From positions 116,609-180,608 of the forward strand of contig JACPGT010000013.1 in assembly GCA_016188965.1 (NCBI GenBank): a DNA stretch of 64,000 bases. The letters run 5' to 3'. Source of the DNA: Candidatus Micrarchaeota archaeon (GTDB lineage: Archaea > Micrarchaeota > Micrarchaeia > Norongarragalinales > Norongarragalinaceae). This document shows positions 36,021 to 57,891 of the stretch, piece by piece (within the stretch, counting starts at the first letter, position 1; each line of letters begins with the position of its first letter). The notes beneath the pieces are model-generated. The model saw only the letters and a list, made by a program, of their open reading frames with translations. It was not told where the DNA came from and ran no database searches. The position numbers and the translations under genes are program-made.

Positions 36021-36048
36021 AGGTCCACCAGAGAATAGTTTCGCACTC

Positions 36049-36058
36049 TTATATAAAC
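36049..36058 (-). promoter_or_regulatory. Canonical archaeal TATA box (TTTATATAAG on the reverse strand), ~27 nt upstream of the TSS and ~6 nt leader to ATG 36020
   Basis: seen in sequence. Confidence 0.6.
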
Positions 36059-36231
36059 GTAAACAATTGCCCGCGAGGGAAAAAGGACGCGGGTTTAAGA
36101 AAAAAACAGGAGAAAGAAGCCCGGGTAAATGAAGCAAAAACGCGGGCCGCCGGCCCATCCGCGTCGCGTCACCGGCCAGCACCCGGGCAAACGCTGAAAA
36201 ACCAAGGACCGAATCAGAAGTCCGAACCGTC

Positions 36232-36660
36232 ATGAACTGGTACCAGCATTTCGCCGTCTCGCTTGCGGCCTGCCATCTGCTCAACGTGGCATCCGCGACG
36301 CCGTGGACCGGGCCGTTATTGGCCGCCGCCGCGCTGGGCGCGTGGCTTCCCGACGTAGACCATCAGAAAACCCGCATCTTCCACTTCGCACTCGCCGTCG
36401 TCTTCGCACTCGCTTTTTCATTCGTTTTCCTGACGGTCAACTTCCCGTTTTCCGCGAAGGTCTTCGCCGCCACGGCCGCAGGCTTTGCATCGGCGCTTTT
36501 ATTGTGGCTCATCAAGCCGCGTCACCGCGGCGTCACGCACCATGGGCTTGCCGCCGCCGTCTTCGGAATGCTGGTCTACGTCGTGAGCCAGAACGCGTCC
36601 GTGGCGGTCAACGGTTTCCTGGCGTACGGCATGCATTTGGTTGCGGACTGGGTTTCGTGA
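36232..36660 (+). CDS. YdjM-like membrane-bound metal-dependent hydrolase (DUF457/COG1988)
   Basis: Four predicted TM helices and the conserved WLPDVDH motif. It is the only plus-strand gene embedded in the giant-gene block. Confidence 0.55.
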   Translation: MNWYQHFAVSLAACHLLNVASATPWTGPLLAAAALGAWLPDVDHQKTRIFHFALAVVFALAFSFVFLTVNFPFSAKVFAATAAGFASALLLWLIKPRHRGVTHHGLAAAVFGMLVYVVSQNASVAVNGFLAYGMHLVADWVS

Positions 36661-36791: not shown

Positions 36792-39700
36792 TTAACCGAT
36801 GTAACCGCCGGAAGGCCCGCCGGATAAGCTGCCTGGTCCGCCCAAGTTGTCTTTGCTGAAGTATCCTTGGGCGCCGTTGCACGAGCCGCCCGTGGCAAAG
36901 GACGCCATCATCGCGTAGGGGCCGAGGGATTTCATCACGGTGTTGGCCACCATGCTCTTGGCTAGATCCTGGGCGGCCGTCTTGGAGAACGGCTGGCAGT
37001 CGGAAGACAAACCGAGGTGGATGACTTGCGTGAATTGCCGGCCTGATGGGAACGACTCGACACACGCAGGCTTGGGTTTGCAAAGGGCGACGCAGCCTTT
37101 GGCCGCCAAAGCCTTGGCGTCGGCAATTTGCTTGTCCAAATCCGCGCCGAAGTCGGCGCCGTATTCCGACGCGACGTCAAGGGCTTTTTGAGTCGCGAGC
37201 TTTTCGGCCTCCAATTTAGCCGCTTCCGCTTCGTAACGGTCGGACGTAGGGCAGGCGAACTGCGACTGCTGGGGCCAGAGGCCGAACGGAATCTCGAAAA
37301 GGGGAGGACGCATGGCGTTGCACTTTTGTTTTGTGGCGGCCAATTGCTGAACGTCCTTGTCATAAGCCAAACGCGTTTGAGTCACGGCTTGTGCAGCGGT
37401 CTTAGCCAACGCAAGCGCGGCGGCGGTTTTAGTCTGCGCCGCGCTTGCAAGGCCGGATGATTCAGCAGCAGCAGCAACGGCCGCAGCGCTTCCTGCATCG
37501 GTCGCAGGAGGATTGGCCGCCTGAAGTGCTTTAAGGGCGGACTGCCGAGAAGTCTCCACTGCACCAATGTCAATCGTGAATTCCGCTTCCAGCTTTTGAG
37601 CGGCGGCAGTTGCAGGCCCGGGCGAAGATGCGGCAGGTGACGGGAGAGCAGTCGTTGACGTTTCTTCAGGTAGATTTGTCTGCGCGATAGCTTCAGATAA
37701 GGCCGTTTTCGCATTGAATAGGTTCAAGCGGGCGGCGCCATCAGCAGTGACGGCTTGCCCATTGGGTGCAATCGCGCCGTCATAGCCAGGAGCACAGCCC
37801 ATTTTGGCGCAGGGGACGCAGACTCCTTCGGTACAGGTGTAGGCCGGCACTTTTGAATTCGTTACACTGGACGACTTTGCGCCCTTGGACGCCGCTTCCG
37901 CAGCGATAGCTACGTTCACTCCGCTTTGAAGCTGTGTGACAGCAGCCTGGAGAGCCGTTCCAGCCTGCTTCAAATCAGCCTTTTCCGCAGCAATCTTCTT
38001 CTGAAGCGTCACGACTTGGTTGCCCAGCGCTTCGCATTGTTGTTTGTAGACGGGGGCTAACGTGAAGATGGCGAGTTTCGTGTCGGGTTTGGTGTGTTCT
38101 TCCGACGCCTGGTTCTGCGAGGGAAGGGCCGGGTTCTTGCCGGTGACGACTTGGTTGCCGGCGGCGTGGAGGAAGCCGCAGAGCAGCAGGCCTTGTCCGC
38201 GGCCGTCGAAGCTCTGTTCGAGTTTCATGGCTTGCGCCGAATAGGTGAACGTGTTGCCGTCGAGGCTTGACGCGGTGACGTGGTACACGCCGGGCAGTCC
38301 GCCGCATCCGGCTCCGACGCGTTGCACGCCCAAGATGTCGAAGGCCTTGTCCGCGCCTTCCGTCAGTTGCATGACGGTGGAAAAGACGAAGGGTTCGCGG
38401 GTGATGGGAGGCGTAGTGGCGAAAGACAAAGAAGAGCCAAAGGACGGAGCAACGGAGTCGGGGCGGTTTTCGAACGATGCCGCAACGCCGTCGGAGTCCG
38501 CGGAGGCGGCCGGAAGAGCCGTCCAGCTGCCGAGGAGCTGGACTTGCACCGAGCGTTGTGATTCTGAATCGGACCACGTGATGGCGGTGACTTGGAAGCG
38601 CAAGCCGTTGCCTTCGTAAAACTCGCCTTGCTGTTTGGAAATCGCGGTCAGCACAGTGCCGGCGGGGGAGCGGATGTCGAAGCCGGCATACGTCGTGCCG
38701 GAGGCTTGCAGGATTTCGGTGAGTTTGATCTGGTTGCCGTTGGCCGCGGTCTTGACGTCGTTGACGTGCAGGGTGACGGGGGTCGAATCCGCGGATGCCG
38801 ACGGAGTCGGCGTGGGAGTGGATGTGGCAGACGGCGTGGGAGTCGGGGTGATGAATGCCGTGGCCCTGGCCGTCGCGGAAGGAGTGGGAGTAACCGACGC
38901 GGTGGCGGAAGGCGACGCGGATGCCGACGGAGTCGGCGTAATGGAAGGAATGGCGGTGGGAACCGGCGTGGGTTGTGCCGAGGGAAGGGCCGTGTCTTGG
39001 CCGCGGCGGAACATGGTGGCGACGGCCGTGTTCTTGGCCGCGGTCTGGAAATGGCGCAATGCCTGCAAGGCGGCCTGGCCCGAACACCATCCTTGCGCGC
39101 AGGACAAATAGTCGGAGGCGGTTTCGACGCGGGGGCCCATGGTGCCGATGCCGTCGAAGTAGGCCGGGGCGTTGTTGTACGTCCATTGGCCGACTTGCGC
39201 GTCGCCGTCGAGCAACGTGAGGGTGCCGGGGCCGGACCAGGAAAAAGCGGCGGCTCCTTGGGCGGCAACGGCGATGGAGCCGGATGCCCCCAGCGGTGTC
39301 AAGGTGCGGGTGCCGGCCTGTTTCTGGTTGATGACGTATAGCAGTTTGGCGGTTTTTTCGCCTTCGTCAAGCGTGGCCGGCGCGGTGTTGATGGAGGTGG
39401 CGGATTGGGCGTTGATGCGGATGGGCAGTTTGATCTGGCTGTTGGGCGCGCAGATGGCAGCCAAAATGAGGTTGGCGTCTCCTTGGGGTAGGATGACTTC
39501 GTTGGCTTTGACGGAAGCCGGGCAATCGGGGCGGTAATCCTTCGCTTCGAACGCCAGCGACGTGCGGCCGAGCTGGTAGCAGCCGGAGTGGGTGGCTTCG
39601 ATGCGCGTCTCGATGGCGCAGGACGGCTCGTCGGTGATGCGCAACGGAACGCTGTCTCGGGGGTAGATGGGGTCGACTTGCAGCGTGATTTCGGTGGCGT

Positions 39701-42206
39701 CGGCCTCGACTTTTCCGGTGGCGGGGTTGTAGTGGATGTTCACGGACGTCGTAAAGGTGCCTGCCGTGGGCAGGACGGTGGGCGTGGCGGGTCCGGGCGT
39801 GGGCGTCGGCGTGCCCTGGAGCGTGCCGCTGATGCCGCGCACGAGGGGTATCTTGTATTCGTACGTGCGGGGGTAGCAAAGCGCGGCCTGCGCGTCGGGC
39901 GGATCACGGGCGGAAAGCAGGCCGCTGTTCGTCTGCGTGGCGAAGTAGAGGGACAATGGCTGGTTGGAGCGGGCGTCGGGTTTGATTTGGAGCAGGAAGG
40001 TGGCGATGCGGACGGCGGGTTGGTTGAAGCGGAGTTCGACCCATTTGTAGCCGTCGGAGTTGGACACCAAATGGGAAGCAAGGTCCTGGCAGTTGGCCGA
40101 AGGGTTGTACGTAGAGCTGCGCAGGACGGCATCCGCGCCGGTGTATTCGGCGATGTAGGCGTCGTCGGACTCCATGTCCGCTTTGCTTCCGACGCGCAGG
40201 TAGATGCTCTGGTTCGTGGCCGACGCCGCGGGCGTGGCGTTCAGTTCGACGACGTATTGCTGGCCGGTCTTAAGCTGGCTGACGCGCTGACCGGACAAAT
40301 CGCGGATCTGTACGAGCCCGACTTGGGCGCCTTGCGTCGCGCTTTGGGGGATGAGTACCGCGGGCAATACGCGGTTTTCGCCGTCCAAAAGCACGAGGTC
40401 GGCCACGAAGGGGACATGTTCGGCTTTGGTCAGGATGACGTGCGTCTGGACCTGGGCGGGAACGTCGGAAAAGCGGGAGGAGCCGTTGGTGTCGGTGGTG
40501 GCGTCGGCAAAGGCCTGGCCTTGGCTGTCCACGTGTACGGAGACGGACGCAAGTGCCGCATTGTCCAGAGCGGAGACGGCGCTGACGCGCAAGGCGGCGC
40601 GGTGGATGGTCAACTGCAGCCGCAGACGGCTTCCGCCTTGTTCGATGCTGACGCGGGCCGTCGCGTTCTGTCCGGCATGCTCGGCCAGCACGTCGTAGGC
40701 CGAGAGGGAAAGCTCGCTAAAGACGGCCGAGCCGGAAAAGTCCGTGGATTGGGCAGGGGAGGCCAAGCGGCCGTTCTGGAAGAGCGTGACGCGGGCACCG
40801 GAGAGCGCGGCGCCGTACTCGTCCTGTACGGCGACGGTGAGGGCGGCCGAGTTGAAGGCCGTGGCCTTTTCCAAGGTGAAGACGTTGTCTTTGCCGGCCT
40901 GCAAGTCGGCCGTCTTGGACAGGTAGCCGTCGGAGTCAAGATAGACGTAGTACGCGCCGGGCTGCACCTGCAGTTCCCAACGCTCGCCTTCATACGTGGC
41001 CAGTTCGATCAAGGGAGCTTTGATGATGCGCGCAGAGAACGGAAGCGGGTTGCCTTGCACGTCCTGGGCGCGGATGACGGTGTCCAATGCGTTGCCACCA
41101 CCGGAGCCGCCGGACGCGTCCAGCGTGATGAGGATTTGGGTGTCTTCCGTCACGGTCTGGGGGCGCGACGAGCCGTCGTAGAGGGGAAAGTTGGCGACTT
41201 GCGCGGTGACGAACACGCTGGAGCCCATTTCGGCGGAAAACGCGGCTGCACCGGCAACGGTGTCGCTTTCACCCAAGAGCGTGCCGCCCGCGCCATAGAG
41301 ACGGACGTGGCCTTCCAAAGGCCCAGCGCTGGAAGACAGTTGGATGGTGACTGCGCCGAACGTGGCCAGCTGGGTCGAATTGCCGTCGCCGCCGCCCGCG
41401 CCGTTGCCGCCGGAACCGGAGCCGTCGCCCGAACCCCCCGAGCCGACGTCACCGCCGCCGAAGAAGGACCCGCTTAAGGACTTCAGAAAGACCGTGGTCT
41501 GTCCGCCGTCGCGCACGGCCAGCGTCTCGGTCTTGTAACCTTCCTTGCTGACGCGGATGTTCGTCAAAGCCGCTTTGGGCAAAACCGCGCGCCCTTGTTC
41601 GTCCGTGGCCTTCGTTCCGCTGCCGTCCTCCGACACGTACAACACTTGGGCCGCCGTCACGGGTTGTTCCGACCCGGCATCCAGCACCACGACGGTCAGC
41701 ACGTTGTAGTCGACGGAGCCGGGATCCGGCAGGTCCTCCGTGCCCGGCGGCGTGGACTTCAGATCGGCTTTAAGCGTGCTTTGCCCCGCGCTGGCCTTGA
41801 GCGTCAACGTCTTGAAGCCGGACTTGCTGACGCGCACCGTCAAGGCGGAGCCAGGCAGGCCGTCGAACGTGATTTTTCCTGCCTTCGTCTTGCCTTGGGC
41901 GATGATGGAGTCTTGGAAGAGGATTTGCACGTCGGCGCCGTCCACGGCCTGCCCCGCGGACTGGACCGTGATGGAAAGACTACGCGTGCCGCCGTCGGCC
42001 TGCGACGTCAACAGCACAAGCGCGCCGCCGACAAGGGCCACGAAGAGGAGGATAAAGACGGGAAGCGACGGGATGCCGCGGGCCTCGATGGGCGTGACGA
42101 AGAAATCCATGAAGGGCACGCCGGCGGTCTGTAGGCCTTCGGCAAAGCCGTAGTACGCCTCCTCGATGGAATCGTAGACGGCCTTGAGGGAATCGAAAAT
42201 ACCCAT
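36792..42206 (-). CDS. Giant (1804 aa) membrane-anchored surface protein with beta-sandwich repeats and an Ala/Gln-rich coiled-coil-like C-terminal region
   Basis: N-terminus MGIFDSLKAVYDSIEEAYYGFAEGLQTAGVPFMDFFVTPIEARGIPSLPVFILLFVALVGGALVLL. TATA-like TTTTTATCC at 42228-42236 (reverse), ~25 nt upstream. Confidence 0.8.
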   Translation of the reverse strand: MGIFDSLKAVYDSIEEAYYGFAEGLQTAGVPFMDFFVTPIEARGIPSLPVFILLFVALVGGALVLLTSQADGGTRSLSITVQSAGQAVDGADVQILFQDSIIAQGKTKAGKITFDGLPGSALTVRVSKSGFKTLTLKASAGQSTLKADLKSTPPGTEDLPDPGSVDYNVLTVVVLDAGSEQPVTAAQVLYVSEDGSGTKATDEQGRAVLPKAALTNIRVSKEGYKTETLAVRDGGQTTVFLKSLSGSFFGGGDVGSGGSGDGSGSGGNGAGGGDGNSTQLATFGAVTIQLSSSAGPLEGHVRLYGAGGTLLGESDTVAGAAAFSAEMGSSVFVTAQVANFPLYDGSSRPQTVTEDTQILITLDASGGSGGGNALDTVIRAQDVQGNPLPFSARIIKAPLIELATYEGERWELQVQPGAYYVYLDSDGYLSKTADLQAGKDNVFTLEKATAFNSAALTVAVQDEYGAALSGARVTLFQNGRLASPAQSTDFSGSAVFSELSLSAYDVLAEHAGQNATARVSIEQGGSRLRLQLTIHRAALRVSAVSALDNAALASVSVHVDSQGQAFADATTDTNGSSRFSDVPAQVQTHVILTKAEHVPFVADLVLLDGENRVLPAVLIPQSATQGAQVGLVQIRDLSGQRVSQLKTGQQYVVELNATPAASATNQSIYLRVGSKADMESDDAYIAEYTGADAVLRSSTYNPSANCQDLASHLVSNSDGYKWVELRFNQPAVRIATFLLQIKPDARSNQPLSLYFATQTNSGLLSARDPPDAQAALCYPRTYEYKIPLVRGISGTLQGTPTPTPGPATPTVLPTAGTFTTSVNIHYNPATGKVEADATEITLQVDPIYPRDSVPLRITDEPSCAIETRIEATHSGCYQLGRTSLAFEAKDYRPDCPASVKANEVILPQGDANLILAAICAPNSQIKLPIRINAQSATSINTAPATLDEGEKTAKLLYVINQKQAGTRTLTPLGASGSIAVAAQGAAAFSWSGPGTLTLLDGDAQVGQWTYNNAPAYFDGIGTMGPRVETASDYLSCAQGWCSGQAALQALRHFQTAAKNTAVATMFRRGQDTALPSAQPTPVPTAIPSITPTPSASASPSATASVTPTPSATARATAFITPTPTPSATSTPTPTPSASADSTPVTLHVNDVKTAANGNQIKLTEILQASGTTYAGFDIRSPAGTVLTAISKQQGEFYEGNGLRFQVTAITWSDSESQRSVQVQLLGSWTALPAASADSDGVAASFENRPDSVAPSFGSSLSFATTPPITREPFVFSTVMQLTEGADKAFDILGVQRVGAGCGGLPGVYHVTASSLDGNTFTYSAQAMKLEQSFDGRGQGLLLCGFLHAAGNQVVTGKNPALPSQNQASEEHTKPDTKLAIFTLAPVYKQQCEALGNQVVTLQKKIAAEKADLKQAGTALQAAVTQLQSGVNVAIAAEAASKGAKSSSVTNSKVPAYTCTEGVCVPCAKMGCAPGYDGAIAPNGQAVTADGAARLNLFNAKTALSEAIAQTNLPEETSTTALPSPAASSPGPATAAAQKLEAEFTIDIGAVETSRQSALKALQAANPPATDAGSAAAVAAAAESSGLASAAQTKTAAALALAKTAAQAVTQTRLAYDKDVQQLAATKQKCNAMRPPLFEIPFGLWPQQSQFACPTSDRYEAEAAKLEAEKLATQKALDVASEYGADFGADLDKQIADAKALAAKGCVALCKPKPACVESFPSGRQFTQVIHLGLSSDCQPFSKTAAQDLAKSMVANTVMKSLGPYAMMASFATGGSCNGAQGYFSKDNLGGPGSLSGGPSGGYIG

Positions 42207-45005: not shown

Positions 45006-47843
45006 TTAGCGGCCCTGCAGGCTGTCGGCATTCTGCGACAACCAGGCGATCAGGCTGTTGGCAGCCGACGTCGTGTCCGACGCCGAGTAGCCGTAGACCA
45101 GGATCTTGTCACCCTGGACCTTGACCACCGGTTCATCCGAAGCCGAGGCAGCCGGAGCACCCGAGAGCGCCGAAGCGGCGACCGAGTTGACCAGCGGACC
45201 ACCGACGACGATCAGCGGCTGAGCACCAGCCGAGGCATCCGTCACGACCAGCGGAGACGCGGCCGTGTCCAACGGCGTGACCACGAAGGCCGTCTCCTGC
45301 GAAGGCTTCAAGCCGTCCGCGCCGGAAACTGAACCACCCGTCGAGCCACTCGACGCGCCCGCAGCCGTGATCGTCTTGACCACGACTTTGTAGCCGTTGT
45401 TGTCCAAAGCGGTTTCGCCCGCCTTGAAGTCCGTCGTCGCCTTGTTGGCGCCCGTGTCCGTTCCTGCCGTCGACAGCGTCGTCAAAGCATGAGCCAGCGT
45501 CGTCGCGTACTGAATTTCCGCGTTCGTCAAGCTCAAGGCCGCCAACTTGCTGCCACGAGGCGAGATGTAGCCCACTTCGTACAGCGTCGGCGTCGTAGCC
45601 GTCGTCGTGTACGTAGCCGCACCCAACGCCGTCAGCGGGAAGTAACCACCCGTGGCCGTGCCGCTTTCCAGCGACAAGTGAGGCGTGCTCGAGCTCGCCT
45701 GGCTTACACCCAGCGAGAAAGCGCCCTGCACGGAGTCTTCCGTCGTGACGTACTCGGGAACGAACAAACCACGGCGGATCGTCGTCATGTCACCCGCTTC
45801 GAAGCCAGCCGGCGTGATACGCAGGTAGACGAAGTTCGGTCCGTAGTTGTACTTCACGAAGTTGCTGCCCACGTTGTAGGACACACCCGTCGCGCCCTGG
45901 CCCGGCGTAATCGTGCCGTTCCAGTTCTCGAAGTTGATGCGCACCGTACCGGCGGCCAGACCCATCAGGGTGCCGTCAACCGTGGCGTTGCCGTTCGCGT
46001 TCGTCAGGACGATTCCCGAAGGCGTCAAGCGCGCGGCCGAAGCCGTCACGTTCGAAATCGCGGCTGCCGGGAACGTGGCTGCCGTAGCGAAGCCCGTGTC
46101 CGTACCGAAGGTCCAGACGCCCGCCATCATCGTCGAGTTGGCGGCCGTGTTGTTCGTGAACCGGGCACCCGTGCCGAAGTCGTAGACTTTCGCGCCCGTA
46201 CCCGTGCTGATGCGCACGTTGGTGGCGGACGTCGTGTAGGCCGCACCGGCCAGCACCATGGTGGTGCTGTAGTACGGTACGAAGTTCGACGTCGTCGGGT
46301 CACGGAAGAAGACCGTACCCGCAGAGCCGTTGCCAGCCGCCGTGGCGTCCGAGATGATGTAGAATTCACGGGCGTTGGTCGGGGCCGAAGCGGCGTCCGA
46401 GAAGTCGAACGGCGAGGTCAGCGTCGACTGTGCCAAGATGTAGGACAAATCGACGGTCGTCGTGTCCGTGGCGCTGGTCTGGAAGCTCTGCGAACCCGTC
46501 GCGAACGTCAGCTTGTCGTAGGAGACGTCGGCCAGGCCGTTGTACGTGAGCTTCATCAGGGCAGGCTTGTCCAGGAAGTTCAGCGAGTCGCCCTTGTTCA
46601 GGTCCGACGCGACCGAGCGCGTCAGTTGGACGCGGGCCAGCGAGTGACCGTAGGACGTTCCGCCTCCGACGAGGTTGACGCGCCAGTTCGTGTTGTCCGT
46701 GCTGACCGAGCTGGATTGCTGCAGGGCCAACTTGTCGGAAAAGACGCTGACTTGCGCGTAGCTGGTCTGACCCAGACCGGCGAAGACCTGGAAGACGCGG
46801 ATGACGATACCATTCTTGTTGTATTCGCCATCTTGCTGCAGCGTCGTCGTGTCGATCACGTTGCCGTTGGCATCGCTGACTTCGAACGAAACGGACAGCA
46901 ACTGCGCCGTACCGGTCGGGACGGCCGAGATGTCCTTGAGCTTGGCGGAAATGCCGTTCGGGGACGTGACAGTGTCACCGATCTGCATGAACTCCTTGTA
47001 GGAGACTTCCTTACCCAGCGTCAGAACTGACGTGGCAGGCAGGGCCGTGTCCGAGTTGAAGTTGTCCATGCCGACGATAATCCAGTCCGCGCCCAAAAGC
47101 TTGACCTTGACGCGGTGCTTGGTCGTCTTGTAGGTGTCCGAGCAGGTCGAGTCGTCCGGCGTGAATTCCGTACAAACCTGGATGGGGTTCGTAAAGATGG
47201 ATTCGTACGCGACTTGCGGGTTCTTGGCCTTGACCGTCTTGGTCGAGGCGTCGTACTGCGTCTTGGAGTAGACGTAGTAGCGTTCCTCCTGCGTGTACGA
47301 CTTGGACACTTGCGAGTCCGTAATCGCGCCCTTGAAGGCCAAAGCCGATTCCGAGGACGTGATCTTGCGGCCAGCGCTGGCGAACGGAGACGTTCCGCCC
47401 AGGATGGTGTTGGTGCCCGTCAGGTCGTTGACGCGGTCATCCGTCGTGTTCGTGTCCAGGAAGCCTTCGACGTAGGTCTTCATCTGGTAGGCCACGTTCG
47501 GGTTGACGCCCGGCGTCGTGATTTCCAAGGAGACTTTGTCATCCGTGGAGGTCGTGCTGGCCGTACCGCCCGAGCAGGACAGCAGGTCAGCGCCCAGGAC
47601 GGTGATGTCCTGCGACGTGTAGGCCATGTTGCCGATCATAGCGGCAATGTTGGCTGCGGCGACGGCGTCCGAGGGTTGGGCCTGGGAGCCGACGACGATC
47701 TTCAGGTTCGGAGCACCGTTCGAGAAAAACGGGAAGTTGCTCAGACCGCTGGAGTCCACTTGGACTGCGCCAGCAAAAGCGGCGCCCAGCAATGCAGCGC
47801 CGGCAGCAGCCGTCGCGATTTTCTTGACGTTCAAACTTTTCAC
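45006..47843 (-). CDS. S-layer-like major surface glycoprotein (945 aa)
   Basis: GTG start preceded by SD GAGGTGG (47848-47854, reverse). Signal peptide MKSLNVKKIATAAAGAALLGAAFAGAV. Thr/Ser/Ala/Gly-rich, very low Cys, dozens of N-x-S/T sequons. A strong terminator follows. A TATA-like TTTAAAAACC lies about 150 nt upstream. Confidence 0.6.
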   Translation of the reverse strand: MKSLNVKKIATAAAGAALLGAAFAGAVQVDSSGLSNFPFFSNGAPNLKIVVGSQAQPSDAVAAANIAAMIGNMAYTSQDITVLGADLLSCSGGTASTTSTDDKVSLEITTPGVNPNVAYQMKTYVEGFLDTNTTDDRVNDLTGTNTILGGTSPFASAGRKITSSESALAFKGAITDSQVSKSYTQEERYYVYSKTQYDASTKTVKAKNPQVAYESIFTNPIQVCTEFTPDDSTCSDTYKTTKHRVKVKLLGADWIIVGMDNFNSDTALPATSVLTLGKEVSYKEFMQIGDTVTSPNGISAKLKDISAVPTGTAQLLSVSFEVSDANGNVIDTTTLQQDGEYNKNGIVIRVFQVFAGLGQTSYAQVSVFSDKLALQQSSSVSTDNTNWRVNLVGGGTSYGHSLARVQLTRSVASDLNKGDSLNFLDKPALMKLTYNGLADVSYDKLTFATGSQSFQTSATDTTTVDLSYILAQSTLTSPFDFSDAASAPTNAREFYIISDATAAGNGSAGTVFFRDPTTSNFVPYYSTTMVLAGAAYTTSATNVRISTGTGAKVYDFGTGARFTNNTAANSTMMAGVWTFGTDTGFATAATFPAAAISNVTASAARLTPSGIVLTNANGNATVDGTLMGLAAGTVRINFENWNGTITPGQGATGVSYNVGSNFVKYNYGPNFVYLRITPAGFEAGDMTTIRRGLFVPEYVTTEDSVQGAFSLGVSQASSSTPHLSLESGTATGGYFPLTALGAATYTTTATTPTLYEVGYISPRGSKLAALSLTNAEIQYATTLAHALTTLSTAGTDTGANKATTDFKAGETALDNNGYKVVVKTITAAGASSGSTGGSVSGADGLKPSQETAFVVTPLDTAASPLVVTDASAGAQPLIVVGGPLVNSVAASALSGAPAASASDEPVVKVQGDKILVYGYSASDTTSAANSLIAWLSQNADSLQGR

Positions 47844-49156: not shown

Positions 49157-49301
49157 GAACGAAGAAAAACCTCTTTCATTTTTTTCAAAAAAACGAAAAA
49201 ACCCAAAAAAAAGGGAAAGCACGCGACACGGAAAAAACCGGAAAAGTCGCGAAAAAAGCCGAAAAACCTCGAAAAAAACCAACCAAACGTGAAACCGAAA
49301 A

Positions 49302-49983: not shown

Positions 49984-50226
49984 AAAACGACCATTCATTT
50001 CTTTTTTCATTTATCCAAAAAAAAGCAAATGCAAAAAAACCAAAAAAAAAACAAAAAACGCGAACGAGAAAAACGAAGGAAAACCGGATCGGAAAAGAAA
50101 GAAAACGAACGAAAACGCGAAGCAAAAAAAACAAAAAAAAGGAAAAAGCTGAATCCGCAATACGCGGAAAACGAACAAAAACAGGAAAAAAGCAAGCCAA
50201 CTTCGAAATAGCGAAGGTGTGAAAAG

Positions 50227-50532: not shown

Positions 50533-50831
50533 GCGCAGAAGGCCCTAAATAGGGTCGAAAATGCCGAAAGGACGAAACAACGTACGGAAACGGAAAGGCA
50601 CACCGCCGAAAAAAAGACGCACAGTGCCTTTTCCCTCTTTTTGCATTTTTTTCCAAAGCAGCCGGTGGGCCAATGCCGACGGATGCGTCTTTTTCATCTT
50701 TTCCAAGGCCCAGCGAAGCATCGTTCCGCAAAAGCCCGCAACCCCAACCGAACCGTTAAACGGATGCGCCGCAAAGCCGCGGAACGAACGCGCCTAGACT
50801 AGTCGGCCGGACCGTTGCGAAGGCTTCCCGC

Positions 50832-50842
50832 AACCCTTAAAA
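50832..50842 (+). promoter_or_regulatory. Promoter motif AACCCTTAAAA (TATA core CTTAAAA), ~28 nt upstream of ATG 50867
   Basis: The same 11-mer recurs at 54839-54849 and 55342-55352. Confidence 0.45.
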
Positions 50843-50866
50843 TCCTCTGGTATCAACCATTCAGCT

Positions 50867-50944
50867 ATGCGTCTTGAACAGCTGGAGAAATTGTTGCAGC
50901 GCCAAGTCCGCGCCCACGCCAGCAAGCGCATCATCAATAACTAG
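50867..50944 (+). CDS. Putative leaderless 25-codon leader ORF MRLEQLEKLLQRQVRAHASKRIINN ending in tandem Asn codons (AAT AAC TAG), 9 nt upstream of tRNA-Asn
   Basis: ATG lies 28 nt after the TATA core. The last two sense codons are Asn. The stop codon is 9 nt before the tRNA 5' end. Confidence 0.3.
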   Translation: MRLEQLEKLLQRQVRAHASKRIINN

Positions 50945-50953
50945 TTTTCAGAG

Positions 50954-51067
50954 GCCCTGGTAGCTCAGCCGGTAGAGCGGCTGACTGTTAGCTTTTTTGG
51001 CGGCGGTTTTTCAAAGCCAAGAACGCCAGACATCAGCAGGTCGTTGGTTCGAGTCCGACCCAGGGCG
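50954..51067 (+). tRNA. tRNA-Asn (anticodon GTT) with a ~41-nt intron at the canonical 37/38 position; no encoded CCA
   Basis: Acceptor GCCCTGG/CCAGGGC+G; D-arm GCTC-AGCCGGTA-GAGC; anticodon arm GCTGA-CTGTTA|intron 50991-51031|A-TCAGC; T-arm GTTGG-TTCGAGT-CCGAC. Mature length 73 nt. A T-rich tract follows. Confidence 0.8.
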
Positions 51068-51135
51068 CTTTCATTTTTTCAGTTCTTCATACATTATTTT
51101 TTCCAGTCGTCTGAAAGTCGTTCGTCGTGTGTGCC

Positions 51136-51417
51136 ATGGAAGTGCGGAAGGTTCTGGAAAAAATCGCGGCCGCCCAGCGCGTGCCGTTGGACGAGAGGGA
51201 AAAAGAGACGTTCAGCCACCAGATTAGCCAAGTGTTGGCGGCGTTTGACCGGCTTGACCAGGTCGACACAAAAGGCGTGCCGCCGTCATACCACCCCGTC
51301 GACATCCCGGCACAATTGCGGCCCGACGAAATCGAGCCGTCACCGGCGCCGGTGGCCAACGCCCGCCGCACCGAGAAAGGCTACATCAAAGGCCCGAGGA
51401 TGATGAAGACGGCATGA
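51136..51417 (+). CDS. gatC: Asp-tRNA(Asn)/Glu-tRNA(Gln) amidotransferase subunit C
   Basis: About 94 aa, MEVRKVLEKIAAAQRVPLDEREKETFSHQISQVLAAFDRLDQVDTKGVPP. Overlaps gatA by 4 nt. Confidence 0.75.
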   Translation: MEVRKVLEKIAAAQRVPLDEREKETFSHQISQVLAAFDRLDQVDTKGVPPSYHPVDIPAQLRPDEIEPSPAPVANARRTEKGYIKGPRMMKTA

Positions 51418-52715
51418 CGGACCGCTTTGAAACTCTGGAAAAGGTGCGCCGCGCCGATGCCAATTTTTCCTGCATGGCATTCGTGCCCGAGTCGTTGGGC
51501 CAGCCGGCTGGCGGTCCGCTTTCCGGCACGTTCTTGGGCATCAAGGACAACCTCTGCGTGCAAGGCATGCCAGCGCAGGCCGGCTCGAAGATATTGGAAG
51601 GCTACATGCCGCCTTTTTCGGCCACGGCCGTCTCGCGTTTGCAGCAAAAAGGCGCCACCGTCGTGGGAAAAACAGTGATGGATGCGTTCGGTTTCGGGAC
51701 GTTCAACGCCAACACGTACAAGGTTCCTAAGAACCCGCACGACGTGTCACGGGCGGCGGGCGGCTCGTCCGGCGGATGCGCCGTGCTCACCGCGGCGACC
51801 GGCATTCCGTGCGTGGCGGAGTCGACCGGCGGAAGCATCAGCGCGCCGGCGGCCTTTTGCGGCGTGGTGGGCGTGACACCGACATACGGCAAAGTCAGCC
51901 GGTACGGCCTCATCGATTACGCCAACAGTTTGGACAAGATCGGTTCCATGGCCGCAACAGTGCGCGAGGCGTTCGATTTGATTGACGCCATGGCCGGTCC
52001 GGATGCGTTGGATTCCACTTCGCTGGTGCCGGCGCCGATGAAAAAAATCCAAGGCAAAGTGGCCGTGGTCAGCGAGTTGTTTGAAAAAGCCGAGGCCGGC
52101 GTGCGCACGGTTGCGATGCAAGCCGTGGAAAAACTGGAGCAGACCGGCGTGGCCGTCGAGGAAGTCCGGCTGGAGCACACCGAAAACGCTTTGTATGCAT
52201 ATTATATTCTGGCCATGGCCGAAGCGTCGACAAACTTGGCCAAGTTCGTGGGCCTGCGCTATGGCCAACAGCCGGCGCCGGAGGAATCCGAGACGTATAC
52301 CGATTATTTCACGCGCGTGCGCGAGCTTTTCGGACCGGAGGAGAAGCGCCGTATACTGTTGGGCAGTTTCGCCCGCACCGCCGGTTACCGCGGCAAGTAC
52401 TACGACAAGGCCGCGCGCGTGCGGACCTTGGTCATCCGCGAACTCAAAAACCTGCTGGAAAAATACGATGCGTTGTTGATGCCATCCATGCCGTGCGTGG
52501 CCCCTCGGTTTTCCGACATCGAAAAATTGTCGCCGTTGGAGCATTACGCGATGGACGTGTGCACCGTGCCGGCGAATTTGGCCGGATTGCCGCATGCCAG
52601 CGTGCCGGTCGGCACATCGCAAAGCATGCCAGTGGGCTTGCAGATCGTCGCGGATCATTTCCAGGAAGGCATCGTCCGCCATTACGGCGAGGCCGTGGAG
52701 GGGCAACGCACATGA
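51414..52715 (+). CDS. gatA: Amidotransferase subunit A (amidase-signature family)
   Basis: Amidase signature GGSSGGCAVLTAATGIPCVAESTGGSISAPAAFCGVVGVTPTYGKVSRYGLIDYANSLDKIG. Confidence 0.9.
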   Translation: MTDRFETLEKVRRADANFSCMAFVPESLGQPAGGPLSGTFLGIKDNLCVQGMPAQAGSKILEGYMPPFSATAVSRLQQKGATVVGKTVMDAFGFGTFNANTYKVPKNPHDVSRAAGGSSGGCAVLTAATGIPCVAESTGGSISAPAAFCGVVGVTPTYGKVSRYGLIDYANSLDKIGSMAATVREAFDLIDAMAGPDALDSTSLVPAPMKKIQGKVAVVSELFEKAEAGVRTVAMQAVEKLEQTGVAVEEVRLEHTENALYAYYILAMAEASTNLAKFVGLRYGQQPAPEESETYTDYFTRVRELFGPEEKRRILLGSFARTAGYRGKYYDKAARVRTLVIRELKNLLEKYDALLMPSMPCVAPRFSDIEKLSPLEHYAMDVCTVPANLAGLPHASVPVGTSQSMPVGLQIVADHFQEGIVRHYGEAVEGQRT

Positions 52716-54139
52716 ACGCCCCCGCCGCCCTACAGGCCGAAGATGACGGCCTCAAAATCGGGCTTGAGACGCACGTGACGCTTAACACCAAGACCAAGTT
52801 GTTCTGCGGTTGCAACGCGAAGGCGCCGGCGGACGCGTTGCCAAACCAGTACACGTGTCCGACGTGCCTAGGCCTTCCGGGATCCAAGCCGCGGCTGAAC
52901 GGAAAAGCGGTGGAATTGGCGGTGCGGGCGGCGCAGGCGCTCACTTTCGACATCGATTTGGACAGCCGTTTCGCACGCAAGACGTACTATTACCCGGATT
53001 TGTCCAAAGATTACCAAATCACGCAGTACGATCGGCCGCTGGGGTTGCGCGGAAAACTCAAGGTCAGCGAAAACTCCGTAGACCTCACCCGGCTTCACAT
53101 CGAGGAGGATCCGGCGCAGATCGTGTATCCGCATGGCAACATGGCCAACAGCACGTACAGCCTGCTGGACTACAACCGATCAGGAATGCCGCTGCTGGAA
53201 ATCGTGACGGAGCCGTGCCTCAAGAGCCCTATGGATGCCAAAGCCTATTTGGAGGAATTGTTCCGCCTCTTGGCGTATCTGGGCGTGATCGACGCCAAAG
53301 CCGAGCGCGTGATGAAGACGGATGCGAATATATCCATCCGCGGCGGCCAGCGCGTCGAGATCAAGAACATCACGTCGTTTGCCGCGGTCGAAAAAGCGTT
53401 GCAGTCCGAACGCTTCCGCCAGAAAAAAATGCTACAGACCGGAAAAACCATCGAACGGCAGACGCGGCTGTATTCCGAGGAGACGGACACCACGCTTCTG
53501 ATGCGGACGAAAGAGCAGGAAGAGGATTACGGCTACATCGTCGAGCCGGACCTGCCGCCCTTGACGCTTTCGCACGAGTACGTCGAATCCGTGCGTGCCG
53601 CGACCAAGGAGTTGCCGGAAAAGGCCATCACACGCCTGGCAGGCGTCGTTCCGGCGCAATACGCACCCATCCTGGTGTACCAGGGATTGCTGCCGTACTT
53701 CGAATCCTCCAGGACCGCGGACAAGAACCTCTTGGCGCGCTGGACGTGCGGCTACTTGTTGAAGGCCATGAACTACAATGACATCGACGCGCCGGATTCG
53801 GCGTTGCCGGTTGCCGAATTGGACGCATTGCTTGCCGCCATCCAAAGCGGAAAAATCACGGAACGCGCCGCCATGGAGTACATCAAGCGCATGGTGACGG
53901 AGAAGAAGACTTTTGCGGCCGTCATGCAGGCCGGAAGCGTCGGATTGGCAGAAAGCGGCGCGCAAACGGCGGCCGACGCGTTGGTATTGAAGATCATCTC
54001 CGAAAACGCGAAAGCCGTGGCGGAATACCGCGCCGGCAAAGCCAAGTCCCTCGAATTCCTGGTAGGTCAGTTCCTGCGGCAGAACCTCGGGCTTCATCCC
54101 AACGAAGTCCGGGAATTGTTCAGGAAAAACATGGCGTAA
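52712..54139 (+). CDS. gatB: Amidotransferase subunit B
   Basis: MNAPAALQAEDDGLKIGLETHVTLNTKTKLFCGC... (ATG overlapping the gatA TGA) and the GatB/YqeY-like C-terminus. Confidence 0.9.
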   Translation: MNAPAALQAEDDGLKIGLETHVTLNTKTKLFCGCNAKAPADALPNQYTCPTCLGLPGSKPRLNGKAVELAVRAAQALTFDIDLDSRFARKTYYYPDLSKDYQITQYDRPLGLRGKLKVSENSVDLTRLHIEEDPAQIVYPHGNMANSTYSLLDYNRSGMPLLEIVTEPCLKSPMDAKAYLEELFRLLAYLGVIDAKAERVMKTDANISIRGGQRVEIKNITSFAAVEKALQSERFRQKKMLQTGKTIERQTRLYSEETDTTLLMRTKEQEEDYGYIVEPDLPPLTLSHEYVESVRAATKELPEKAITRLAGVVPAQYAPILVYQGLLPYFESSRTADKNLLARWTCGYLLKAMNYNDIDAPDSALPVAELDALLAAIQSGKITERAAMEYIKRMVTEKKTFAAVMQAGSVGLAESGAQTAADALVLKIISENAKAVAEYRAGKAKSLEFLVGQFLRQNLGLHPNEVRELFRKNMA

Positions 54140-54233: not shown

Positions 54234-54446
54234 ATGCAGGTCGTGTTTGAAGCGGAAATTCGACAAGTGGGGACATCTCTCGGCGTACTGATTCCGGCCA
54301 AAATAGTCCGACAGAAGCACTGGAAAAAAGGGACGCGGGTATTCGTTACGTTTCTGGATATCGACGAAAAGGCCATAAAAAAAGGATTCGGAATGGGAAA
54401 AGGGATGAAGCCGTACCAGAAAGTAAAATGGAGCAAATGGGAATAA
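54234..54446 (+). CDS. VapB-type antitoxin (AbrB/SpoVT-fold)
   Basis: MQVVFEAEIRQVGTSLGVLIPAKIVRQKHWKKGTRVFV. Preceded by an AT-rich box TTATATTATAATGTATATG and SD GGTGAGGTGG. Confidence 0.6.
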   Translation: MQVVFEAEIRQVGTSLGVLIPAKIVRQKHWKKGTRVFVTFLDIDEKAIKKGFGMGKGMKPYQKVKWSKWE

Positions 54447-54447
54447 C

Positions 54448-54822
54448 ATGCTACTGGACTCTTCCGCGTGGATCGAATACTTCCTTGCAACGGCTAAGGG
54501 AAAAAAAATCCTCCAATGGCTGACCGGCGGTCCTGCCTACGCCAGCGCCATCAGCTATGCCGAAATCACCCGGTGGGCATTGCGGTCAGGGCAATCGCCG
54601 GAACCTTTCATCCACCAGATGGAAAAGGTCGCCCGCGTTCTGCCAATGGAAAAAAACACGCTGGTCGCGGCCGGATACATGACTGCCGATCGCAAAAAAA
54701 CCCATGAAAAGTGGGGCTTGGCGGATGGGATCATGTATGCTACAGCCCGAAAACATGGCCTCGAATTGCTGACCGTGGATCACGATTTCAAAGGCCTTGA
54801 AAACGCCATCATCATCGAGTAG
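54448..54822 (+). CDS. VapC PIN-domain toxin
   Basis: MLLDSSAWIEYFL...AEITRWAL...TVDHDFKGL. Begins 2 nt after vapB. Confidence 0.75.
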   Translation: MLLDSSAWIEYFLATAKGKKILQWLTGGPAYASAISYAEITRWALRSGQSPEPFIHQMEKVARVLPMEKNTLVAAGYMTADRKKTHEKWGLADGIMYATARKHGLELLTVDHDFKGLENAIIIE

Positions 54823-55250: not shown

Positions 55251-55460
55251 AACGCAAACCGGCAACATCGCGACACGAAGGAAAAACCAAGAAAAAACTC
55301 ACGCACGGATGGCGGCGGCAGAGAAAGTCCGCCTCCGCAACAACCCTTAAAAACCTTCAACCCGTAAATCCATTCAGGCACGAATTTTTCGCCCGTTTTT
55401 GGTCCAGAGGCCTCCATTTGCGTCGGAAGGTTGCCGGGCCGGAAGAAAGGGAAAAACCAC

Positions 55461-57128
55461 ATGACGCCGAAAAAGCCGGAATCCGAACAGGAAGCACTCA
55501 TCAAAAGCCTGGCCAAGAAAACGGACGAGCACGAGTTCTACACGCCCATCCCCAAGAACTACCAATTTGGCAAGACCAAGTACGTGTTCGTGACCGGCTC
55601 CGTGATTTCCGGCGTGGGAAAAGGCATATTCTCCGCATCGTTATCCAAGCTCTTGAAGGACCAGGGCCTGCACGTGGAGGCCATGAAGTTCGACGGCTAC
55701 CTCAACGTGGATGCCGGCACCTTAAACCCCTACCGCCACGGCGAAGTGTTCGTGCTAGACGACGGCACGGAATGCGATATGGACCTCGGCACGTACGAGC
55801 GCTTCTTGGACCAGGACATCTCGAAAGACAACTATTTGACGGCCGGAAAACTCTTCTCGCAGATCATCGCCAAGGAACGCGCCGGCGAATACCTAGGCCG
55901 CGACGTGCAGTTCGTCCCGCACGTGACCGGCGAAATCAAGGCATTCATCCGCCATTTGGCGCTCAAGACTGAAGCGGACGTCGTCGTCATCGAAGTCGGC
56001 GGCACGGCGGGCGACATCGAATCGGCCTATTTCCTGGAAGCCCTGCGTGAACTGGCGTATGAAGAGGGCGCGGGCAACAGCTGCTTCGTCAACGTCACCT
56101 ACATCCTGAAGCCCTCCGCTTTGGGCGAACATAAGAGCAAGGCGGCACAACTGGGCATGCGCACGCTGATGAGCCTAGGAATCCAGCCGCAGCTGATCGT
56201 ATGCCGCTCGCGCGAGGCCATACCCGAGAAGATCCGTGAAAAACTATCCATCTTTTCCAACGTCCCCGTCGACCGCGTCATCGGTCTTGAGGATTTGCAA
56301 AGCATCTACCAGGTACCCTTGAAACTGAAGGAATGCAAAGCCGACGAAACGGTGTGCGACATCCTGCAACTCAAGGGCAAGCTCAAGGCGCAGGAAAAGG
56401 CGTTGGCGCTTTGGGAAGAATTCGAAAAGAAGATGCACGAAGCGAAGAAGGAAGTTCACGTGGCCATCACCGGCAAATACACCGGCTTGCATGACGCGTA
56501 CGCGTCCATCCTCAACGCCTTGGAGCACGCCGGCGAAGCGAATCGCGCGCACGTCAACGTGCACTGGGTAGACACCACCAAAATCGAGACGCTGAAAGAA
56601 GCTTCCGAGGCGCTCAAGGGCATGGATGGCGTCATCGTGCCCGGCGGATTCGGCGCCCGCGGAGTGGAAGGCAAAATCCTCTGCGTCCAACACTGCCGCG
56701 AAAACTCCGTGCCGTACTTCGGCTTGTGTTATGGATTCCAGATGGCCGTCATCGAATTCGCGCGCAACGTCTGCAGCATCAAGGGCGCGCACACGACGGA
56801 AGTCGAGCCGGAATGCAAGGACGACGTCATCGACATCCTGCCGGAACAGAAGGAAAAGGAAGGACTTGGCGGCAACATGCGCCTCGGCGGGCACAAAGTC
56901 GAGATCAAGAAGGGGACGCTGGCCGAGAAATTGTACGGCGATTCGTCGGCGCACGAGCGCTTCCGCCACCGCTACGAATGCAACCCAAAGTACATCGACG
57001 TCTTGGAAAAAGCCGGCCTCGTGTTTTCCGGCAAAGCGCCGCACCACCCCATCATGCAGATTCTGGAGCTTCCCGAATCCAAACACCCGTTCTTCGTGGG
57101 GGTTCAGTTCCACCCCGAATTCACCTCC
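55461..57128 (+). CDS. pyrG: CTP synthase, with a ~30-aa N-terminal extension and lacking the last ~25 residues (no in-frame stop until 57890)
   Basis: KYVFVTGSVISGVGKGI P-loop, the glutaminase triad region GLCYGFQ, and ...FFVGVQFHPEFTS, after which the frame runs into an unrelated gene. Confidence 0.85.
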
Positions 57129-57129
57129 C

Positions 57130-57813
57130 GCCGGCATCGGCGCCGCTTGCGCCAAGGCGTTCGCCGACAAAGGGGCGCGCGTGGTCATCCACTACAAGTC
57201 GGCCAAGACCAAAAAAGAAGCCGAAAAAATCGCCAAACAGTGCAGGGCCGAACGGTGCGTGCAAGCCGACGTCGAGTCGTTGGACGAATGCAAGAAGCTC
57301 ATCGACGCCGTGGTGAAGAAATGCGGCCGCATCGACGTCTTGGTGAACAACGCCGGAATGAACACGCCTACACCCGTCGGCAAGACGGACGCGGCCACGT
57401 GGGAAAAAATCGTCAACACCAACCTCCGCGCTCCCTTCTTCCTCGTCCAGTACGCGTTGCCACACCTGCCCGCCGGCTCGGCCATCGTCAACCTAGCATC
57501 CATCCGCAGCTTCCGCACCCGGCCCAGCGTCGCTGTGTACTCGCTGACCAAAGCCGGCGTCAAGTCGCTGACGGAGACGATGGCCAACGAACTGGCGCCC
57601 GGCATCCGGGTGAACGCCATCGCGCCAGGCTACGTCGACACCGACATGTTGCGTGCTTTTCCACCGGAAAAAATCGAACAATTCCGACAAAGCGCGGCAC
57701 TGAAGCGGATCATCCGACCCGACGAAATCGCCCACGCAGCCGTCTTTTTGGCCGAGAACGACGCCGTCACCGGCCACACCCTTGTCGTGGACGGCGGCTA
57801 TTTGATCCAATGA
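57130..57813 (+). CDS. Short-chain dehydrogenase/reductase (FabG-like), missing ~12 N-terminal residues and its own start codon
   Basis: Frame +1 relative to pyrG: (A)GIGAACAKAFADKGARVVIHY...NNAG...YSLTKAGVKSLT (S-Y-K catalytic residues)...VDGGYLIQ*. Confidence 0.8.
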   Translation, partial: AGIGAACAKAFADKGARVVIHYKSAKTKKEAEKIAKQCRAERCVQADVESLDECKKLIDAVVKKCGRIDVLVNNAGMNTPTPVGKTDAATWEKIVNTNLRAPFFLVQYALPHLPAGSAIVNLASIRSFRTRPSVAVYSLTKAGVKSLTETMANELAPGIRVNAIAPGYVDTDMLRAFPPEKIEQFRQSAALKRIIRPDEIAHAAVFLAENDAVTGHTLVVDGGYLIQ

Positions 57814-57891
57814 CTCGCTGGGGGCCAAAAACAAAAACTCACCGGCCAGTTCGTCCAACGATTTTTATCCCGCATTCGGCACCGCTGTAGC

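Follow-up and report, generated by a model that had tools for sequence, protein, structure and literature searches.

Organization of the tRNA-Asn/gatCAB locus

The stretch analyzed here, 64 kb of contig JACPGT010000013.1 from a Candidatus Micrarchaeota archaeon (referred to as the window, with all coordinates counted from its first nucleotide), contains a 25-codon open reading frame (ORF) positioned immediately upstream of an intron-containing tRNA-Asn gene, which is itself followed by gatC, gatA, and gatB (gatCAB) encoding the Asp-tRNA(Asn) amidotransferase. The ORF ends in two asparagine codons and a TAG stop codon (50942–50944), is conserved in nine lineages, and is very probably a real, selected, coding micro-gene, whatever its function. 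The features of the locus are as follows.

50829–50842, plus strand: archaeal promoter CGCAACCCTTAAAA, composed of a BRE (B recognition element)-like CGCAACC and a TATA-like TTAAAA (50837–50842)
50843–50866, plus strand: TATA-to-ATG spacer of 24 nucleotides (nt), fixed in length and free in sequence
50867–50944, plus strand: 25-codon, predicted leaderless ORF MRLEQLEKLLQRQVRAHASKRIINN*, conserved in nine lineages without insertions or deletions
50936–50941, plus strand: tandem Asn codons, the last two sense codons of the ORF (AAT 50936–50938, AAC 50939–50941)
50945–50953, plus strand: linker TTTTCAGAG of 9 nt, joining the stop codon to tRNA nucleotide 1, identical in the window and in lineages L002, L004, L005, and L017
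50954–51067, plus strand: tRNA-Asn(GUU), with exon 1 at 50954–50990, the intron at 50991–51031, and exon 2 at 51032–51067
51074–51079 and 51097–51102, plus strand: two T6 runs, probable archaeal oligo-T terminators between the tRNA and gatC
51136–51417, 51414–52715, and 52712–54139, plus strand: gatC, gatA, and gatB, Asp-tRNA(Asn) amidotransferase

Most of this arrangement had been proposed in a first-pass annotation of the DNA, and its main elements are borne out. The 25 codons ending Asn-Asn-stop can be read directly from the window, as can the linker that places the stop codon 9 nt from the tRNA 5′ end. The intron-containing tRNA-Asn(GTT) gene that had been called there is matched by Rfam family RF00005 at 57.7 bits (E = 7.6e-10, against a gathering threshold of 29 bits), its anticodon loop CUGUUA presents the anticodon GUU (Asn), and the intron follows position 37, spanning 41 nt by the exon-boundary parse and about 42 inserted nt in the Rfam alignment. 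ARAGORN reported no tRNA in the window, owing to the intron. Each of the related loci has an orthologous tRNA with an intron; identity is 0.94–0.98 for the exons and 0.62–0.64 for the introns. The linker is more variable outside the five lineages in which it is identical, reading TTTTCAGAT in L007 and CTCTCAGAGG in L001 and L006 and extending to 11 nt in L008; the TTTT behind the stop codon is present in six lineages and absent in L001, L006, and L008.

The gatCAB genes do follow the tRNA as annotated, with ORFs that begin at 51136, 51414, and 52712 and with start and stop codons that overlap from one gene to the next, as is typical of operons. The window GatA matches, at 100% identity, a protein listed at NCBI as GatA of a Candidatus Micrarchaeota archaeon, and Pfam recognizes GatC, Amidase, GatB_N, and GatB_Yqey domains in the orthologues. 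A T5–T7 run lies no more than 12 nt behind the tRNA in every locus, so that co-transcription of gatCAB with the tRNA is not established; from general knowledge of archaeal U-tract termination (PMC8716108), the T6 runs of the window probably end transcription before gatC is reached. In the loci compared, gatC is not preceded by a conserved promoter or a Shine-Dalgarno sequence. The tRNA-to-gatC spacer measures 43–101 nt in eight of the nine ORF-bearing loci; in the ninth, L008, which is the most divergent of them, tRNA-Asn and gatC are separated by a gene of 243 amino acids (aa) that has no Pfam match (L008:1985–2716).

Conservation and coding signature of the 25-codon ORF

An open frame of 25 codons is by itself unremarkable in DNA of 57% GC, and conservation in related genomes had been put forward in the first-pass annotation as a way to check it. 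Related loci were taken from the contigs of GatA homologues, which form a tight group in Micrarchaeota (62–89% identity, with the next matches at or below 56%). Extra loci came from metagenome contigs scanned for TTAAAA followed at 95–125 nt by tRNA-Asn exon 1, a pattern that puts no constraint on the sequence between the two; all five of the resulting matches contain the ORF. The nine ORF-bearing lineages are thus the window, L002, L017, L004, L005, L006, L007, L001, and L008. In each of them the ORF is 25 codons long, starts with ATG, and ends with AAT AAC and either TAG or TAA, and both the ORF and its two terminal Asn codons are accordingly kept in nine of nine lineages with a leader of about 87 nt. 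The results that the first-pass annotation had named as refuting, an ORF that is not conserved or Asn codons that are lost in relatives, did not arise. The ORF also lies inside the tRNA-Asn unit beside gatCAB in every one of the nine.

Only seven residues of the peptide are invariant (M1, E4, E7, K8, L10, N24, and N25). At the extreme, the L008 peptide MCQEKQEKMLQCMHHARYSHLTVNN is 40% identical to the window peptide and differs from it at 15 of 25 residues, yet retains N24 and N25. The C-terminal RIINN is conserved in eight of the nine, and the terminal AAT and AAC, which are the only Asn codons of the ORF, are invariant in both amino acid and nucleotide sequence in all nine. The peptide is predicted to form a basic amphipathic helix that includes the invariant E4, E7, K8, and L10.

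Mean pairwise DNA identity is 0.82 across the ORF, compared with 0.47 for the TATA-to-ATG spacer, 0.49 for the tRNA-to-gatC spacer, and 0.72 for gatC. The share of codon differences that are synonymous is 0.41 in the ORF frame and 0.09–0.31 in the other five frames, a level that was reached by 14 of 5000 column shuffles. Nei-Gojobori dN/dS values range from 0.03 to 0.49, and pooling of four phylogenetically independent pairs gives 23 synonymous changes over 62 sites and 32 non-synonymous changes over 226 sites (pooled pN/pS 0.38, binomial p = 5e-4). Synonymous changes are enriched only in the ORF's own frame, and the pattern of substitutions points to translation of the ORF.

The peptide has no match in Pfam, NCBIfam, or the PDB, and no paralogue of the ORF is present in the window or in any fetched locus, where it occurs only at the tRNA-Asn/gatCAB locus. 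Exact look-up of the peptide returned two JGI gene calls, both nameless, and the ORF is otherwise unannotated in nearly all records. A search with a profile made of duplicated peptides gave no candidate in a collection in which short proteins are seemingly not indexed, and viral contigs scanned for the ORF end joined to the tRNA start gave nothing. Two other origins for the open frame were considered and rejected. An antisense ORF of 47 aa (50794–50937, minus strand) has a synonymous fraction of 0.21, equal to the shuffle level, and is interrupted in L001. A remnant of an integrase or other gene fragment at a tRNA integration site is ruled out by the purifying selection observed across lineages.

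Promoter geometry and the predicted leaderless start

The motif CGCAA(C/T)CCTTAAAA, or a near variant of it, precedes the ORF in all nine ORF-bearing loci, and across loci the promoter block has an identity of 0.77 versus 0.26 farther upstream. In the window, the end of the hexamer is separated from the ATG at 50867 by exactly 24 nt, and the same TTAAAA-to-ATG distance is found in eight lineages, with 25 nt in L006. The identity of the intervening spacer is 0.47, such that its sequence is scrambled despite the constant length. Because the length of the spacer is fixed and its sequence is not, transcription is predicted to start at or beside the A of the ATG at 50867, which would make the mRNA leaderless. 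The leaderless layout had been proposed from the window by itself, and the 24–25-nt spacing over scrambled sequence in nine of nine lineages is consistent with it. The promoter-like motif of that proposal is likewise confirmed; its distance to the ATG, given there as 28 nt, is 24 nt, a difference of counting only.

The same geometry recurs elsewhere in the window. A TATA-like hexamer followed by an ATG at 22–26 nt occurs five times on the two strands of the 64 kb, and three of these five cases head long genes (378, 921, and 70 aa) for which the TATA-to-ATG distance, 23–26 nt, is like that of the small ORF. A second, tRNA-proximal promoter inside the ORF was also considered; the candidate ATCAATAAC lies 14–21 nt from the tRNA 5′ end, which is too near for an archaeal TATA box.

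The terminal asparagine codons

Asparagine accounts for 3.46% of codons in the long ORFs of the window, and AAT for 17% of the Asn codons (91 AAT versus 449 AAC). At this composition the chance that the final two codons are both Asn is about 0.0012, and the chance of a tandem Asn pair anywhere in the ORF is about 0.03. The first codon of the pair, codon 24, is the rare AAT in nine of nine lineages, whereas five of the six other conserved two-fold codons of the ORF vary.

RNA structure of the leader

Alternative RNA folds spanning the leader and tRNA, which the first-pass annotation had suggested looking for, were not found: neither the leader nor the leader-tRNA transcript contains conserved or unusually stable hairpins. 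The RNAalifold consensus of −9.1 kcal/mol carries a covariation term of +0.91 and a single compensatory pair, which amounts to no conserved structure, and leader stability relative to shuffles (z = −0.56, with the other z-score at −1.55) shows no excess for the leader alone or for the leader plus tRNA. When leader and tRNA are folded as a single full transcript, the leader forms its own fold, separate from the tRNA. At the gathering threshold, tRNA is the sole Rfam family matched in the 64-kb window, with no match to the T-box. A C/D-box small RNA on the minus strand was considered and rejected; UGAUGA is present, but the matching CUGA is not conserved (it is absent in L001) and there is no Rfam match.

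Origin of the ORF and the L001 and L006 loci

The closest ORF-less relatives, L009 and L011, have GatA proteins 64–65% identical to that of the window and carry the same promoter motif with tRNA-Asn directly behind it; their CGCAAYCCTTAAAA box lies 29–33 nt before the tRNA, so that the leaders would be about 5–9 nt long. The ORF is also absent from L020. Since ORF-less relatives have the same promoter right before the tRNA, the ORF has the appearance of 78 nt inserted precisely where transcription of an older promoter–tRNA-Asn unit began, an event that would have left a 9-nt leader remnant. It would have taken place in one subclade of the Micrarchaeota, which are tiny archaea of groundwater. 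In L009 (2395–2425) and L011 (2610–2640), a duplicated 3′ tRNA-Asn fragment (…TCGAGTCCTGACCTCGGGCGCTCTTTTT) is present 80–230 nt downstream of the real tRNA and looks like the attachment (att)-site scar of an element that integrated at tRNA-Asn.

Two of the ORF-bearing loci, L001 and L006, amount to a natural experiment. Behind the ORF they have the initial 15 nt of the tRNA, intact, and next a homologous segment of 155–208 nt, which aligns as a decayed copy of the intron-bearing tRNA-Asn (L001:3322–3476, L006:1667–1874) and in which intron-like motifs such as CGCGCCAAAAA are kept. The decayed segment contains T-runs and ends in a separate TATA-like AATAAAAC box about 27 nt before the real tRNA, and Rfam recognizes only one tRNA in each of the two loci. 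The ORF nonetheless remains under purifying selection beside this pseudogene, with six synonymous and two non-synonymous changes between L005 and L006. A functional tRNA directly downstream is therefore not required for the function of the ORF. The decayed copies are about 77–84% identical, and L001 and L006 are not sisters (their GatA proteins are 71% identical). The two loci also share the TAA stop codon and the CTCTCAGAGG linker, which hints at recombination or at an old tandem duplication of the tRNA.

A proposed role in sensing Asn-tRNA(Asn)

We tentatively favor, at a probability of roughly 0.4, a micro-gene that is translated into a peptide with a role of its own and that can be read to its end only if Asn-tRNA(Asn) is available, so that it feeds back on the tRNA-dependent asparagine pathway. 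The micro-gene would form the 5′ leader of the tRNA-Asn primary transcript, with transcription predicted to begin at the A of the ATG, 24 nt behind TTAAAA. A ribosome would load on the leaderless 5′ end and read the 25 codons, and the RNase P cut at tRNA nucleotide 1 would part an 87-nt mini-mRNA from the pre-tRNA. The peptide would be finished and released only after two Asn codons had been decoded just before the stop, the first of which is the rare, wobble-read AAU. With ample Asn-tRNA(Asn), the peptide would be made and the terminating ribosome would just reach the RNase P site; with scarce Asn-tRNA(Asn), ribosomes would stall 3–6 nt farther upstream with the peptide unreleased. Such a device could work through the peptide, once released, and a putative partner of it in the pathway, through ribosome occupancy beside the RNase P site, or through both.

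The spacing between the stop codon and the tRNA is compatible with such an arrangement. Elongating Haloferax ribosomes have a 27-nt footprint whose 3′ edge lies 15 nt from the P site (PMC7261190). By this measure, a ribosome with the stop codon in its A site would have its 3′ edge at 50954, which is tRNA nucleotide 1, while the edge would fall at about 50948 with the first Asn codon in the A site and at about 50951 with the second. The 9-nt linker would then be close to the shortest that permits termination without unfolding of the tRNA, and at its last three positions the ribosome would be placed on or beside the RNase P site.

Several points weigh against this reading. The invariance of AAT-AAC is only suggestive, at about p = 0.1 when compared with the other two-fold sites, and conservation of Asn-Asn is equally expected if the C-terminal RIINN serves a protein function other than decoding. 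All of the conservation statistics are drawn from nine related lineages and 72 nt, and the transcription start, translation, and the peptide are predicted from sequence. An effect in cis on the adjacent tRNA appears to be dispensable in L001 and L006, where that tRNA has decayed. The sign of a cis effect is also a problem; when Asn-tRNA is scarce, stalling of a ribosome close to the RNase P site should if anything slow the maturation of tRNA-Asn. Finally, neither the window nor some 150 kb of related loci contains another tRNA gene by which the generality of cognate-codon leaders could be judged.

Alternative explanations

A smaller but appreciable chance belongs to the main rival, a small protein unrelated to asparagine decoding, which would borrow the strong tRNA promoter and RNase P processing and in which the Asn-Asn end would be a structural or binding motif that matches the tRNA by coincidence. 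Purifying selection at the amino acid level along the whole peptide and the helix-like pattern of invariant E4, E7, K8, and L10 are what such a protein would exhibit, as are the persistence of the ORF beside a tRNA pseudogene in L001 and L006 and the lack of any RNA switch structure; archaeal proteins of like size that act on enzymes are also known, the 23-aa sP26, which binds glutamine synthetase, being an example (10.1101/2020.05.06.080432). Coincidence must then account for an Asn-Asn end with a chance of about 0.0012 (about 0.03 for a pair anywhere) in a window with a single tRNA and hence little look-elsewhere effect, for survival of both N24 and N25 in L008 where 15 of 25 residues have changed, for the rare AAT in nine of nine lineages, and for an ORF that is never found away from the tRNA-Asn/gatCAB locus. 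A non-coding role is very improbable. On this reading the conserved 87 nt would work at the level of RNA or DNA, for instance as a structure in the pre-tRNA leader, as a site bound by a protein, or as a small RNA derived from the leader, and the frame would be open only incidentally. It would explain why nucleotide conservation peaks at the 3′ end, ATCATCAATAACTAGTTTTCAGAG, with synonymous positions and the untranslated linker included, and the reverse strand does contain a C-box-like UGAUGA. But the enrichment of synonymous changes is confined to exactly one frame, and the ATG, the stop codon, and the length are kept without insertions or deletions down to 40% protein identity; nor is there a structure or covariation signal, Rfam detecting only the tRNA and the CUGA that would match UGAUGA being missing in L001.

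The first-pass annotation had taken the tandem cognate codons as the signature of attenuation. In an attenuator of this kind only the Asn codons would matter; a ribosome stalled at them would change whether transcription terminates or continues into tRNA-Asn and gatCAB, and the peptide would have no role. The codons do stand, heading the tRNA-Asn/gatCAB locus within a predicted leaderless ORF in nine of nine lineages; an attenuator of the trp/his/leu type is not supported, as there are no conserved alternative hairpins and selection acts on the entire amino acid sequence, which attenuation leaves unexplained. We therefore consider attenuation in this form improbable. The short tRNA-to-gatC spacer in eight of nine loci and the lack of an obvious Shine-Dalgarno sequence or conserved promoter at gatC would suit read-through, and a Rho-like, ribosome-sensitive quality control has been hypothesized for archaeal FttA (PMC11616081). 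The TTTT behind the stop codon is, however, missing in L001, L006, and L008, strong, terminator-like T5–T7 runs occur behind the tRNA only, where there is one in all loci, a 243-aa gene separates the tRNA from gatC in L008, and the pseudogene with its T-runs parts the ORF from the real tRNA in L001 and L006. Nor are we aware of an archaeal mechanism, among those described, by which the position of a ribosome would affect termination over 120 nt farther downstream. The Asn-gated micro-gene is favored because it uses all of the observations, while the attenuator and the Asn-unrelated protein each leave some of them unexplained. What the comparisons show is that the ORF is conserved, changes in the manner of a coding sequence, has the spacing of a leaderless gene, was apparently inserted, and keeps its Asn codons invariant; translation, stalling, release by RNase P, and any regulatory output are inferred.

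Amino acid sensing by ribosomes on leader peptides is a textbook mechanism in bacteria. Where asparagine is made only on tRNA-Asn, via GatCAB, the gene for this tRNA effectively belongs to the biosynthetic genes, and a leader ORF with tandem Asn codons at the head of such a gene is what the bacterial logic would predict. Literature searches returned no archaeal leader-peptide sensor and no case in which the 5′ leader of a tRNA gene is a conserved, translated ORF. On a bolder reading, to which we give less than even odds, the element would be the first sensor in Archaea to gauge aminoacyl-tRNA supply by means of the ribosome, and the first inside the 5′ leader of a tRNA gene. Translation of the two terminal Asn codons, half a ribosome footprint away from the RNase P site, would then report how much Asn-tRNA(Asn) is available and tune tRNA-Asn and possibly GatCAB through ribosome occupancy, peptide release, or both. 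The 87 nt together with the tRNA offer a compact system in which coupling of archaeal translation to RNA processing or transcription could be tested. Even on the plainer reading, the locus would contribute a conserved protein of 25 aa to the small proteins of DPANN archaea, a set of which little is known, with an mRNA that would be freed from a tRNA precursor by RNase P.

Gene neighborhoods of gatCAB and other features of the window

In three of the related loci, an Asparaginase_2 gene (PF01112) lies directly upstream of the ORF/tRNA-Asn promoter (L006:645–1508, L008:699–1559, and L011:1247–2110), so that a cluster of genes with an asparagine theme is formed with tRNA-Asn and gatCAB; the window has no Asparaginase_2 gene directly upstream. 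In one Woesearchaeota genome, an outgroup (L021:797–3787), gatCAB follows a gene for an aspartyl-tRNA synthetase (AspRS)-type enzyme (tRNA_anti-codon and tRNA-synt_2 domains) rather than tRNA-Asn, with a Translin-domain gene upstream of the synthetase gene. This aspS-gatCAB arrangement shows that gatCAB tends to adjoin partners in its pathway. Directly behind gatB in the window (54234–54822), a leaderless-looking ORF of 70 aa is followed by one of 124 aa (MLLDSSAWIEYF…), and the two resemble a candidate pair of an antitoxin and a PIN-domain toxin.

The minus strand of the window contains three giant ORFs of 3349, 2113, and 1804 aa (15720–25769, 29943–36284, and 36792–42206) in a block with a GC content above 60%, and an S-layer-like protein of 945 aa is encoded at 45006–47843, this being the only one of the four that was scanned against Pfam. 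These are probably large surface proteins typical of DPANN archaea. The CTP synthase ORF (55431–57890) encodes 819 aa compared with 577–585 aa in relatives, with an Arg-rich tail past FHPEFTS, which suggests a frameshift or a lost stop codon near 57100, either as an assembly error or as a real change. Long A-rich, purine-rich intergenic tracts with degenerate repeats of about 10 nt (CGGAAAAAAC, AAAACGAACG) are present at 49170–49300 and 50015–50200; they are positioned behind T-runs, between small conserved genes without a Pfam match, and give rise to spurious Lys-rich ORFs.

Comparison with known systems

The organization of the element recalls the bacterial leaders trpL, hisL, leuL, pheL, and thrL, in each of which a short ORF with tandem cognate codons (also two in trpL) heads an amino acid unit, the unit here being one of aminoacyl-tRNA. 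In leuL, rare CUA codons act as the sensing codons, and the predicted sensing codon is likewise rare here. Unlike these attenuation leaders, the Micrarchaeota element has no terminator or antiterminator hairpins, its ORF is predicted to be leaderless, the tRNA lies immediately downstream, and selection at the amino acid level extends over the entire peptide. The host, moreover, is an archaeon, and archaea are not known to use hairpin-dependent termination.

Nascent-peptide arrest at or near the stop codon is known for TnaC (24 aa) and for the fungal arginine attenuator peptide (AAP, 24 aa). The Micrarchaeota peptide resembles both in having about 25 residues, a fixed length, a conserved sequence, C-terminal residues placed at the stop codon, and a position upstream of genes for metabolism of the same amino acid. 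It differs from them in that there is no sequence similarity, the invariant E4, E7, K8, and L10 are farther from the C terminus than are typical arrest motifs, no Rho-type target is known downstream, and arrest itself is conjectural here.

In Clostridium acetobutylicum, the tRNA-dependent asparagine operon (gatCAB) is reportedly under T-box control, a result attributed to Saad et al. in 2012. The pathway, formation of Asn-tRNA(Asn) via GatCAB, and the quantity that would be sensed, the charging of tRNA-Asn, are the same as those considered here. The T-box, a bacterial structured RNA that binds uncharged tRNA directly and without translation (surveyed in PMC2494555), differs from the present leader, which gives no T-box Rfam match.

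Among archaeal small proteins, sP26 of Methanosarcina mazei (23 aa) binds glutamine synthetase (10.1101/2020.05.06.080432). The likenesses are a similar size, an archaeal host, and a plausible role beside an amide-nitrogen enzyme. As described there, sP26 does not lie within a tRNA transcript, nor is it reported to end in codons cognate to a neighboring tRNA.

The closest parallels come from mycobacteria, where leaderless short ORFs with poly-Cys tracts act as amino acid sensors in the "Cys ribulon" (Canestrari et al., 10.1101/834739). As in that system, the Micrarchaeota ORF is a predicted leaderless first cistron with consecutive cognate codons, was unannotated, and was recognized by conservation; ribosome pausing is known for the mycobacterial ORFs. 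The stalled mycobacterial ribosome opens a structure that conceals the following gene's ribosome-binding site (10.1101/834739), whereas at the present locus there is no masking structure, no ribosome-binding site (the next gene being a tRNA), only two sensing codons, and a host from another domain of life. The element should not be classed as a member of the trp type or of the mycobacterial type, given its lack of alternative hairpins and of a masked ribosome-binding site, but among the systems compared it appears most like the bacterial leader-peptide sensors, and the leaderless poly-Cys ORFs in particular.

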